Below are positions 245-4,925 of a stretch of 4,925 nucleotides of DNA, in pieces. Under the pieces are notes generated by a model that was not told the DNA's origin, did not search any database, and saw nothing but the letters and a program-made list of their open reading frames with translations. The translations under genes were made by a program, and so were the position numbers. Position 1 is the first letter of the stretch. Each line of letters begins with the position of its first letter. The DNA comes from Escherichia coli. GTDB lineage: Bacteria > Pseudomonadota > Gammaproteobacteria > Enterobacterales > Enterobacteriaceae. The DNA is taken from the NCBI RefSeq assembly GCF_003334255.1, contig NZ_QOWU01000106.1. The stretch is one strand, 5' to 3'.

Positions 245-280
245 AGGAGAAAGGGGCTACCGGCGAACCAGCAGCCCCTT
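245..280 (-). terminator. Second hairpin downstream of hok (8-bp stem, 14-nt loop) followed by a U/C-rich tract; candidate 3'-terminal structure of full-length hok mRNA
   Basis: Plus-strand aaggggct (251-258) and agcccctt (273-280) are perfect reverse complements. On the minus strand the hairpin is followed by UCUCCUUGCU. Confidence 0.3.
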
Positions 281-316
281 TATAAAGGCGCTTCAGTAGT
301 CAGACCAGCATCAGTC

Positions 317-341
317 CTGAAAAGGCGGGCCTGCGCCCGCC
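317..341 (-). terminator. GC-rich hairpin plus U-tract about 10 nt downstream of the hok stop; hok mRNA 3' structural element or terminator
   Basis: Minus-strand stem GGCGGGC/GCCCGCC (plus coordinates 324-330 pairing with 335-341, 4-nt loop) followed on the minus strand by UUUU (complement of 320-323). Confidence 0.4.
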
Positions 342-350
342 TCCAGGTTG

Positions 351-509
351 CTACTTACCGGATTCGTAAGCCATGAAAGCCGCCACCTCCCTGTGTCCGT
401 CTCTGTAACGAATCTCGCACAGCGATTTTCGTGTCAGATAAGTGAATATCAACAGTGTGAGACACACGATCAACACACACCAGACAAGGGAACTTCGTGG
501 TAGTTTCAT
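351..509 (-). CDS. hok: Hok toxin (type I toxin-antitoxin, small membrane-depolarising peptide, 52 aa)
   Basis: Manual translation of the minus strand from ATG (complement of 507-509) to TAG (complement of 351-353) gives [52 protein letters not shown]. From memory this matches Hok of plasmid R1 / FlmA of F essentially residue for residue. It has a hydrophobic N-terminal transmembrane segment, lies wholly inside the overlapping mok frame, and sits immediately downstream of psiA as in IncF plasmids. Confidence 0.92.
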
Positions 510-567
510 GGCCTTCTTCTCCTTGCGCAAAGCGCGGTAAGAGGCTATCCTGATGTGGACTAGACAT
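355..567 (-). CDS. mok: Mok (modulation of killing) leader ORF overlapping hok; its translation is coupled to hok translation
   Basis: 70-aa ORF in the track that overlaps the hok CDS in a different frame, the defining arrangement of hok/sok-family loci. ATG at complement of 565-567 with GAGG about 8 nt upstream on the minus strand. Mok has no known independent function. Confidence 0.7.
523..551 (+). promoter_or_regulatory. Candidate sok promoter (-35 TTGCGC, -10 TATCCT, 17-bp spacer), located inside the hok/mok coding region
   Basis: Hexamers read directly from the plus strand; the position gives a transcript of Sok-like length ending at the hairpin/U-tract near 612-623. Match to the sigma-70 consensus is moderate (4/6 and 4/6). 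Confidence 0.4.
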
Positions 568-623
568 AGGGATGCCTCGTGGTGGTTAATGAAAATTAAC
601 TTACTACGGGGCTATCTTCTTTC
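558..623 (+). ncRNA. sok: Sok antisense RNA (about 65 nt), antitoxin of hok; boundaries approximate
   Basis: Plus-strand transcript predicted from a candidate promoter (TTGCGC 523-528, 17-bp spacer, TATCCT 546-551). It is antisense to the mok SD/start region (mok ATG at 565-567). It ends in a long imperfect hairpin (about 574-612, apical stem GUUAAU-GAAA-AUUAAC at 585-600) followed by a U-rich tract (613-623). Length and position match what is known of Sok; the exact 5' and 3' ends are not determined. Confidence 0.55.
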
Positions 624-685
624 TGCCACACAACACGGCAACAAACCACCTTCACGTCATGAGGCAGAAAGCCTCAAGCGCCGGG

Positions 686-720
686 CACATCATAGCCCAT
701 ATACCTGCACGCTGACCACA
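686..720 (-). promoter_or_regulatory. Candidate hok/mok mRNA promoter (minus strand: -10 TATGAT at complement of 689-694, weak -35 TGGTCA/GGTCAG around 712-718)
   Basis: Best sigma-70-like -10 on the minus strand between the psiA stop (789) and the mok start (567). A start near 682 would give a full-length mRNA of about 400 nt if the 3' end is near 285. The -35 is weak, which fits a weak constitutive hok promoter, but the assignment is uncertain. Confidence 0.25.
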
Positions 721-788
721 CTCACTTTCCCTGAAAATAATCCGCTCATTCAGACCGTTCACGGGAAATCCGTGTGATTGTTGCCGCA

Positions 789-1993: not shown

Positions 1994-3952
1994 TCAGGCG
2001 GCATCAGCCAGGTTATCGGTGCGTTCAGTGGCATCTGTCTGTGGATGTGGTGCACACATCCAGCCTGGAACCCAGCGGTTGTCTTTCATATGGTGCTCTG
2101 CATGTTCAGCCGCATCACCTTTCTTCATCTTCTCCGCGTCCCGTGCGGCACCGGACAGTCCGGCCTCATTCAGGGCTGCGATAATCTGCGGCTTTTTCAG
2201 GTGTCCGAAGAAGTTTGCTTTTGTCGGCTGCCACCAGTCGCGCATGTGGAATCCGATAGCGCTTTCCAGCGAGTCAAGCGGACTGCGTGACGTGTGACCA
2301 CACTCACGGGTCTGGACACCGTTAAGGCTGCATGCGGTGCAGAAACTGAGCAGGGATAACAGCACCTCCTGACTGAGGGACAGGAATGTCGTCATGTCCC
2401 GTGACCATCCCTCCGGCAGCAGGGCTGCAAGACGGGATTTTTCTGCCATCAGCGCCATGAATGCGGCACCTTCCTTCCCCGATGGCGCATCGCTGGTCAG
2501 CGAATAATGTTCACATTCCAGGCTGATTTGTGCTGGTTTACTGTACGCCCCGCTGCCAAACACATTCAGGCAGAGCGTCCATGCCAGCAGTGCCAGAGAT
2601 TTGTCCGGCTGCTGCATGAGTGCCGCCTGGACTGCCAGCGTGCGCTCTGAGGACATTTTCGTCAGCAACGGCAGGCTGATTTCCTCCACTGACGCTTTCT
2701 CCTGCACCTGTTCCGTGCGGTCAGCGTCGTCAGTCGCGTCATCTTCACTGCGCAACTGCACACCACGCTGGACACATACGTTGCCATAACGCCAGGACAC
2801 CACCACACCGCTTCCGGCACGTATCTCCGGCGTCCACGCTCTGACCTTCGCCATGCAGCGCATCAGCTTCATTTCTGCTTCCAGCAGGTCGGATTCCTCA
2901 CACTGGTTTTCCAGCGCGTCGTAACGCGTCATCAGTTCGTTCAGGCGTTCGTCTTCCGCCTCCGTCAGCACCGCTTCCGGCTCCGGCAGACAGCGGTATG
3001 TTCCGGCATCCTCACGGCACTCACCGACAGGCTCCATGCGCCCGGCGCACCATTCCCAGCCTTCGGCTTCCCGAAGGTGTTCAGCGACAGCCTGGAGTTT
3101 TTCCAGCAGGGCGGCATCGAGCGCCACGCGGTCGACATAACCGTCCCCGTCATCGCTGAACAAATCGGTGCGCAGTTCGTCTGGCGAGAAGGCATCAGCC
3201 CCCACGAAGCGGAATTTACTGTTCCCAGCCACCGCCACTTCACTTTCGGTCACCAGACGACGAATGGTCTGTACTTCCGGTTTACCGCCCCATCCCGACT
3301 GACAGGCGGCTTCAAACACCTGCACCTGACGCGCGGTGTCGTTCTCCAGCGCCAGCGCCTGACAGTGTTCGGTGGTGATGCGGTCTTCTGCCAGCGCATC
3401 GAGGATGACAGGCGCAAGGTCAGCCAGTTTCAGCATTCGCTGAACGTGGCGGGGTGAATAGCCCAGCAAATCACCGATGTGTGCAGGTGTTTTGCCTTCC
3501 TGCGCCATTGCGCGGAATCCGGCAATCTGTTCGGCAGGGTGCATATCCCGACGATGACCGTTCTCGGTCATTGATGCGGCAGTCGCCAGCTCCTGCGGAA
3601 TAATTTTTACGCGGACAGGCCAGTCAGCCGGAATGATGTCACGCTCTGCCAGCATGTTGAGTGCTGCCAGTCGGCGACCACCTGCGGCGACACCGTAACG
3701 GTCACCTGGCAGGGCATGAACAACCAGATTCTGCAGCAGGCCGACTCCCTTAATGGAATCAGCCAGTTCACTGACGGACTCCGCAGAATACGGCACCGTG
3801 CGCACATTCAGCGGTGATTTAATCAGTGAATCCAGCGGCACGCTCACTTCCTCCGTCTGCGCCAGCAGGGCAGACAGTGCAGTTTCCTGCGTTTTTACAG
3901 ATTTACGGCTTGCTTTGCGGGTGGTTTCTGGTTCACACTTCGTTACAGGCAT
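1994..3952 (-). CDS. ParB/Srx N-terminal-domain protein (652 aa) with HTH and a long uncharacterised C-terminal region; leading-region ParB-like protein
   Basis: The N-terminal roughly 200 aa shows ParB N-domain hallmarks: box-I-like LIKSPLNVRT, arginine-rich box-II-like VAAGGRRLAALNMLAE, and a downstream HTH-like segment TPAHIGDLLGYSPRHVQRMLKLADL. The remaining roughly 430 aa has no motif I recognise (no DPPY/NPPY methyltransferase motif, no obvious nuclease motif). Start called at the second ATG (complement of 3950-3952), which has AAGGGG with a 6-nt spacer; the track's first ATG (3958) abuts the SD. Confidence 0.88.
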   Translation of the reverse strand: MPVTKCEPETTRKASRKSVKTQETALSALLAQTEEVSVPLDSLIKSPLNVRTVPYSAESVSELADSIKGVGLLQNLVVHALPGDRYGVAAGGRRLAALNMLAERDIIPADWPVRVKIIPQELATAASMTENGHRRDMHPAEQIAGFRAMAQEGKTPAHIGDLLGYSPRHVQRMLKLADLAPVILDALAEDRITTEHCQALALENDTARQVQVFEAACQSGWGGKPEVQTIRRLVTESEVAVAGNSKFRFVGADAFSPDELRTDLFSDDGDGYVDRVALDAALLEKLQAVAEHLREAEGWEWCAGRMEPVGECREDAGTYRCLPEPEAVLTEAEDERLNELMTRYDALENQCEESDLLEAEMKLMRCMAKVRAWTPEIRAGSGVVVSWRYGNVCVQRGVQLRSEDDATDDADRTEQVQEKASVEEISLPLLTKMSSERTLAVQAALMQQPDKSLALLAWTLCLNVFGSGAYSKPAQISLECEHYSLTSDAPSGKEGAAFMALMAEKSRLAALLPEGWSRDMTTFLSLSQEVLLSLLSFCTACSLNGVQTRECGHTSRSPLDSLESAIGFHMRDWWQPTKANFFGHLKKPQIIAALNEAGLSGAARDAEKMKKGDAAEHAEHHMKDNRWVPGWMCAPHPQTDATERTDNLADAA

Positions 3953-4827: not shown

Positions 4828-4925
4828 GATGTGTCTCCTTCTGTTGATGTTTTCAGCCCCCATCATCTGTTGAGTTTCGGGAGCCGCGGTTTTGACGTTT
4901 TGCGGGGACCTGCTCTTTGTTCCCT

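Follow-up and report, generated by a model that had tools for sequence, protein, structure and literature searches.

Does the DNA that follows psiA in the 4925-nt stretch of Escherichia coli sequence analysed here (the window) carry a complete toxin-antitoxin locus? Are its parts intact? To which allele do they belong? Could transcription of the psi genes continue into the toxin gene? The original prediction described a complete hok/mok/sok type I toxin-antitoxin module, and the evidence from proteins, primers, nucleotide numbering and RNA folding agrees in supporting that description, each element of which occurs within 2 nt of the position first given for it. On the basis of the sequence the locus is almost certainly an intact R1-type hok/mok/sok (parB) post-segregational killing module, placed at the end of the ssb-psiB-psiA block nearest to oriT, in an IncF leading region. 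The family was also said to be well known and this is so, hok/sok of R1 being the textbook type I toxin-antitoxin system; the module is already known at this exact position and is ordinary there. We now consider these issues in turn, beginning with the surroundings of the locus.

The window aligns in one piece and with 100% identity to many IncF plasmids of E. coli, among them p1NQ3 (NZ_CP024721), and at least 5000 plasmid records match it. Of 5426 complete E. coli genomes, 3163 carry the 476-nt region that holds the module (245-720), and at least 5000 plasmid records contain it as well. All the genes of the window are on the minus strand, in the order ssb, a DUF905 gene, a ParB-like gene, psiB (1505-1942), psiA (789-1508) and then the hok region. 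Past the low-coordinate end of the window the plasmid record shows oriT and traM; the window is therefore leading region with its genes transcribed toward oriT. PsiA comprises 239 amino acids, scores 422 bits with NF010258 and has the length and C-terminus of F PsiA. Its stop codon is 106 nt before the first nucleotide of the hok mRNA on the same strand, so the locus is, as had been proposed, directly downstream of psiA. The order psiB-psiA-hok recurs in F, examined as NC_002483, and in plasmids of Escherichia, Klebsiella, Enterobacter and Salmonella, and the occurrence of hok/sok beside psiA in IncF leading regions is already documented (PMC9849209, PMC11541004, bioRxiv 10.1101/2025.08.07.668861).

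The entire block from ssb to psiA and hok is bracketed by a 638-bp direct repeat, the two copies being 99.4% identical. In window coordinates they span -547 to 90 and 4849 to 5486, of which 1-90 and 4849-4925 are inside the window (3001-3638 and 8397-9034 of the plasmid record). In F their counterparts are the single-strand promoter regions Frpo1 and Frpo2 (PMC9849209). The low-coordinate copy contains a long inverted repeat, at 3091-3277 of the plasmid record and so outside the window.

The hok toxin gene occupies 351-509 on the minus strand, encodes 52 amino acids and is preceded by a Shine-Dalgarno (SD) sequence, AAGGAG, at about 516-521. The peptide matches Pfam family PF01848 over residues 8-48 (E = 1.3e-21) and the NCBIfam model NF007279 over its full length (residues 1-52 of 52; 126.4 bits, cut-off 73), and it is identical to HOK_ECOLX in UniRef, a sequence present on at least 1000 contigs. 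The comparison with the Hok family that had been suggested for this peptide was thus passed at both models and by an exact match. The leader gene mok, at 355-567 on the same strand, encodes 70 amino acids and overlaps hok in another frame, beginning upstream of the toxin gene and terminating within it. Mok scores 151.6 bits with NF010277 (cut-off 110), which upholds the overlapping frame of the original description, and is identical to FLMC2_ECOLX in UniRef, again on at least 1000 contigs. Both frames are intact. Translation of mok is needed for translation of hok. The coordinates first given for the 52-residue frame were exact, as was the remark that it falls below the size cut-off of the open reading frame track: read from the first TTG the hok frame extends over 351-530 and gives 59 amino acids, just short of the 60-residue cut-off, and hok was not listed for this reason, the 70-residue mok being long enough.

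That such a module is easily missed by automated annotation is borne out by RefSeq, whose annotation we examined on identical DNA in NZ_CP023850. There Hok is truncated to 41 amino acids (351-476), 11 residues short, and mok is given as an incomplete pseudogene at 418-567 though the DNA is intact. Sok has no feature in the RefSeq annotation of this DNA. RefSeq also presents psiA as frameshifted (746-1508), an assignment that we reject given the 239-residue frame, which ends as F PsiA does and matches the full model. A hypothetical plus-strand reading frame is placed at 589-777, where it overlaps the 3′ end of Sok and the leader and promoter of hok; it is probably spurious.

The promoter scan placed the hok promoter on the minus strand with a -35 element TGGTCA at 713-718 and a -10 element TATGAT at 689-694, separated by an 18-nt spacer. 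The promoter (718-689) is weak and starts the hok mRNA at 682. TATGAT is the -10 box of R1 hok, in which mutations at T-12, A-11 and T-7 cause loss of function (PMC9841398). The ends of the transcripts were fixed with four published R1 primers (Faridani et al., PMC1635323), all of which find exact matches in the window. The hok forward primer matches 664-682, which sets the 5′ end (+1) at 682, and the hok reverse primer matches 322-335, which sets the 3′ end of the processed mRNA at 322, nucleotide 361 of the transcript. With +1 at 682 the numbering was then checked against the nucleotides named in the mutational study of R1 by Le Rhun et al. (PMC9841398). All 15 agree with the window, namely the three in the -10 box (T-12, A-11, T-7) and the full 12 out of 12 in the mRNA (G4, C5, T6, G64, A70, G71, C72, C74, G105, A106, G345 and C358). 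The full-length hok mRNA extends over 285-682 of the minus strand and so measures 398 nt, which we take from the Gerdes-laboratory literature to be the size of the full-length species. This length is consistent with a processed form of 361 nt and the removal of about 39 nt (PMC1635323). The primary hok transcript probably extends beyond this, as far as the terminator at about 245-250.

The minimum-energy fold of the 398-nt RNA (682 to 285) has a free energy of -175.9 kcal/mol (z = -8.25) and its 5′ and 3′ ends are paired. The pairing joins the translational activator element, tac, at the 5′ end of the mRNA (672-682, minus strand), to the fold-back inhibitory element, fbi, at the 3′ end of the full-length molecule (285-296, minus strand), with nucleotides 1-7 opposite 390-396 and nucleotides 9-10 opposite 387-388. 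Mutations of G4, C5 and T6 in tac of R1 abolish toxicity (PMC9841398). An internal hairpin at 571-616 on the minus strand buries the mok SD sequence, GAGG (578-575), against an upstream complementary box, the anti-SD, around 613-609. This hairpin is also the Sok target region; it lies within the match to the Rfam family RF01794 and carries A70, G71, C72, C74, G105 and A106. As modelled, the 398-nt fold is the published closed, untranslatable form of the mRNA (PMC9841398, PMC1635323).

Hairpins at the 3′ end were part of the original description and two were recovered by folding, at 343-322 and 281-250 of the minus strand. The first (322-343) is the terminal stem-loop of the processed 361-nt mRNA; it ends precisely at the processed 3′ end, contains matches to G345 and C358, and has compensatory changes in its stem among homologues (alignment columns 399-418). 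By analogy it would act as a roadblock against 3′ exonucleases. The second (250-281) is the intrinsic terminator of hok, with 14 bp, a UUCG loop and a U-rich tail to about 245 (-25.3 kcal/mol, z = -3.86), and its hairpin is conserved across homologues with one-sided G-U changes. Both this terminator and that of Sok went unlisted in the terminator scan of the window, their stems having bulges or extending into the U-tract, and both were confirmed by folding.

Nine homologues with 80-100% identity, from plasmids of Escherichia, Klebsiella, Enterobacter and Salmonella, were aligned. In these tac is invariant, as is fbi, including CTGAAGCGCC, and compensatory changes occur at 12 predicted pairs, several of which belong to the terminal stem-loop. 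The consensus fold retains all nine tac-fbi pairs. Since these pairs are invariant the tac-fbi helix itself carries no covariation evidence. For the 361-nt processed RNA the minimum-energy fold does not include the published tac/ucb ‘open’ stem, and has an ensemble frequency of 0.0014; we treat this model result as a limit of prediction and not as evidence.

Sok is encoded on the plus strand at 558-621. The two R1 Sok primers both match exactly and delimit an RNA of 64 nt, and R1 Sok is 64 nt in length with an 11-nt tail (PMC1635323). An antisense RNA at about 558-623 had been proposed; its start and strand are correct and its 3′ end is to be moved to 621. Sok begins with an 11-nt single-stranded 5′ tail (558-568) over the mok start codon, followed by a long hairpin and a 3′ end rich in U. 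Nucleotides 115-125 of the hok mRNA, among them the mok AUG at 116-118, are complementary to this tail. Folding returns the tail and the hairpin at -26.5 kcal/mol (z = -5.6).

The position of the Sok promoter was derived from the 5′ end at 558. It would comprise a -35 element TTGCGC at 523-528, overlapping the hok SD, and, after a 17-nt spacer, a -10 element TATCCT at 546-551, all on the plus strand (523-551). It agrees with the consensus at 7 of 12 positions, a poor match, and for that reason is not listed in the promoter scan of the window; nevertheless TTGC of the -35 element and the A2 and T6 of the -10 element are kept in all nine homologues. The proposal of a promoter inside the hok/mok coding region is correct with respect to mok but not to hok, as the promoter is upstream of the hok reading frame.

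The only Rfam match in the window is to RF01794 ‘sok’, with 88.9 bits (gathering score 59; E = 1.2e-19) over the full model (1-157) and 683-507 of the minus strand. The consensus of RF01794 begins with the tac sequence and finishes at the hok AUG. Judged from that consensus, the family models the leader of the hok mRNA in the sense orientation and not the antisense RNA, and the search of the window gave no plus-strand match because RF01794 is built in this orientation. An Rfam search had been suggested as support for Sok; it yields a match above the gathering score, but on the hok-sense strand and not on the plus strand. The match supports the locus and is not usable as the position or strand of Sok. 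Pipelines that rely on RF01794 would put ‘sok’ on the wrong strand and at the wrong length. One practical use of the present analysis is in correcting annotation (hok, mok, psiA and Sok in RefSeq, and the strand of RF01794), and it carries little weight as discovery.

How would the module work? Sok transcription and Hok killing have been shown experimentally for the R1 locus (PMC9841398, PMC1635323), as has killing upon inactivation of the Sok promoter for the R1 sequence (PMC9841398). By analogy with R1 the full-length hok mRNA would be stable and untranslated. Slow trimming of about 39 nt from its 3′ end, to nucleotide 361 (322 in the window), would then lead to refolding, and the refolded mRNA would expose the Sok target and the ribosome-binding site of mok. 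As long as a cell carries the plasmid, Sok, abundant and very short-lived (half-life about 30 s), would pair with the processed mRNA to block translation of mok and therefore of hok, the duplex being cut by RNase III. In plasmid-free cells Sok would decay, Hok would be made and the cell would be killed by damage to the inner membrane.

The psiA-hok intergenic spacer (683-788, minus strand) is 106 nt in length and contains the weak 760-774 hairpin of the original description, which also noted the lack of an obvious strong terminator between the two genes. Both observations stand, as scanning and folding disclose no terminator on the minus strand between them. The terminator scan of 683-788 gave no terminator-like site on that strand and, from ssb to the hok terminator, nothing terminator-like on the minus strand except two weak intragenic matches. 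The hairpin at 760-774 exists, with 5-6 bp, but on the minus strand its stability does not exceed that of shuffled sequence (z = +0.92), and only on the plus strand does it have a T-rich tail. We considered it as a psiA terminator and rejected it, on the grounds of a stability close to that of shuffled sequence and of the absence of a minus-strand U-tail. A Rho-dependent stop in the spacer was also rejected, since the spacer RNA is rich in G (C/G = 0.59) and so does not resemble a Rho loading site.

Because there is no terminator between psiA and hok, read-through from one to the other is plausible. Such read-through is probably harmless according to the models, and when the start is placed 148 nt upstream, within psiA, the RNA adopts the same closed hok fold in silico. 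The point bears on what restrains the toxin gene during the single-stranded stage of the plasmid, when the antitoxin cannot be transcribed. In F, Couturier et al. count flmC with the genes that lie downstream of Frpo2, a single-strand promoter (PMC9849209), and given that work read-through from psi or Frpo2 into hok is not a new idea. Nor is it required for function, as the minimal R1 locus (parB) functions on its own promoter (PMC9841398). The tight 106-nt spacing that the window shares with F is not universal, since psiA and hok are separated in several related plasmids by one or two further small hypothetical reading frames (77-172 amino acids).

Comparison with R1 hok/sok (parB, GenBank X05813) reveals Hok and Mok proteins identical to those of the window, and identity also in the Sok sequence with both its ends, the 5′ end and processed 3′ end of the hok mRNA, the -10 box and the 15 named nucleotides. 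No difference was detected in the parts of the 580-bp parB region that were compared, namely the proteins, the four primers and the 15 nucleotides. The more distant relatives, srnB of F, pnd of R483 and R16 and the chromosomal hokA-E, belong to the same toxin family (PF01848) and share the logic of a leader reading frame, an antisense RNA and an mRNA with paired ends (bioRxiv 10.1101/2025.08.07.668861), but they are far more diverged and occur in other genomic contexts. The NCBIfam HokA model gives 44.6 bits with the Hok of the window, below its cut-off of 89.

The flm locus of F (flmA/flmB/flmC, also called stm) is nearer. It has the same position just downstream of psiA, where PMC9849209 describes flmAB, the same organization and the same tac and fbi. 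Might the module then be an F-type flm allele and not R1 hok/sok? Since flm and hok/sok are the same system the question is one of allele and not of kind. Identity to the window is roughly 94%, judged from the flm-type plasmid pSTEC388. Residue 39 is tyrosine in FlmA and histidine in the Hok of the window, and the N-terminus is MLRQHQ... in Mok/FlmC of F and MSSPHQ... here. The antisense hairpin of flm is shorter, being without 4 nt and 3 nt in its two arms, and there are several differences in the antisense tail and in the target of that tail. Such allelic differences in the Sok 5′ tail and its target may set antisense specificity. Primers and numbering of R1 fit the window exactly and the F allele differs, from which we conclude that the locus is the R1 allele. 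The protein, antisense-region and primer comparisons refute flm at the level of the allele, and we regard that assignment as highly improbable. Several chromosomal hok loci of E. coli K-12 are decayed or silent; could this copy be another such case, kept by hitch-hiking only? The RefSeq flags, an incomplete pseudogene for mok and a shortened Hok, could be taken that way, but they are annotation artefacts on identical DNA. Both reading frames are full length and score above curated cut-offs, and the promoter, tac, fbi, SD sequences, Sok and terminator are identical to those of the functional R1 locus. Decay is scarcely credible on this evidence, and an intact R1-type module, with which no feature of the sequence conflicts, remains our reading of the locus.

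A further explanation accepts the mechanism and concerns the role for which it has been selected. The module might guard the segment between the 638-bp Frpo repeats from recombinational deletion, or serve early establishment, with hok RNA made also by read-through from psiA or Frpo2. The nearly identical repeats that bracket the block from ssb to hok are in keeping with such a role, and PMC9849209 proposes that flmAB safeguards the inter-Frpo segment in addition to listing flmC downstream of Frpo2. The minus strand free of terminator-like sites from ssb to the hok terminator, but for the two matches mentioned, the spacer unlike a Rho site and the closed fold retained in silico by the read-through RNA point in the same direction, as does the enrichment of toxin-antitoxin genes in plasmid leading regions (PMC11541004). 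Against this, minimal parB of R1 works on its own promoter outside the leading-region context (PMC9841398), and the reading frames that intervene between psiA and hok in several relatives indicate that tight coupling to psiA is not conserved. Such a role is possible, and we judge it unlikely. Still more tentative is the suggestion of an ‘armed’ recipient. As there is no terminator between psiA and hok and the entering strand is not a template for Sok, Frpo2 could yield hok RNA ahead of Sok during conjugative entry. From the incoming single strand ssb, psiB, psiA and hok could be transcribed but Sok could not; the inert fold and the slow 3′ processing would buy time for second-strand synthesis and Sok expression, and a cell that fails to establish the plasmid might be killed. 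This outcome is doubtful. Post-segregational killing by an intact R1-type module is the reading to which we adhere.

Some structural features of the locus and its surroundings may be recorded here. Relative to the F-type and most other alleles, the allele of the window has paired insertions of 4 nt and 3 nt in the arms of the Sok/mok-SD hairpin (570-617; alignment columns 121-163), and similar paired insertions, of 4 nt and 5 nt, are present in the allele of an Enterobacter RHB15 plasmid. The paired insertions lengthen the Sok/mok-SD stem. In the gap between the stop codon of the ParB-like gene (1994) and the start of psiB (1942) there is a strong, GC-rich hairpin at 1957-1983, with 12 bp of which nine are G-C, and with a T-rich tail on the plus strand only. 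Finally, a second terminator-like hairpin, GCGCCTGCGGCGC and then a T-rich tail, is found at 160-172 of the minus strand, some 80 nt past the hok terminator; it is on the same strand as hok and lies between hok and the repeat on the Frpo1 side.
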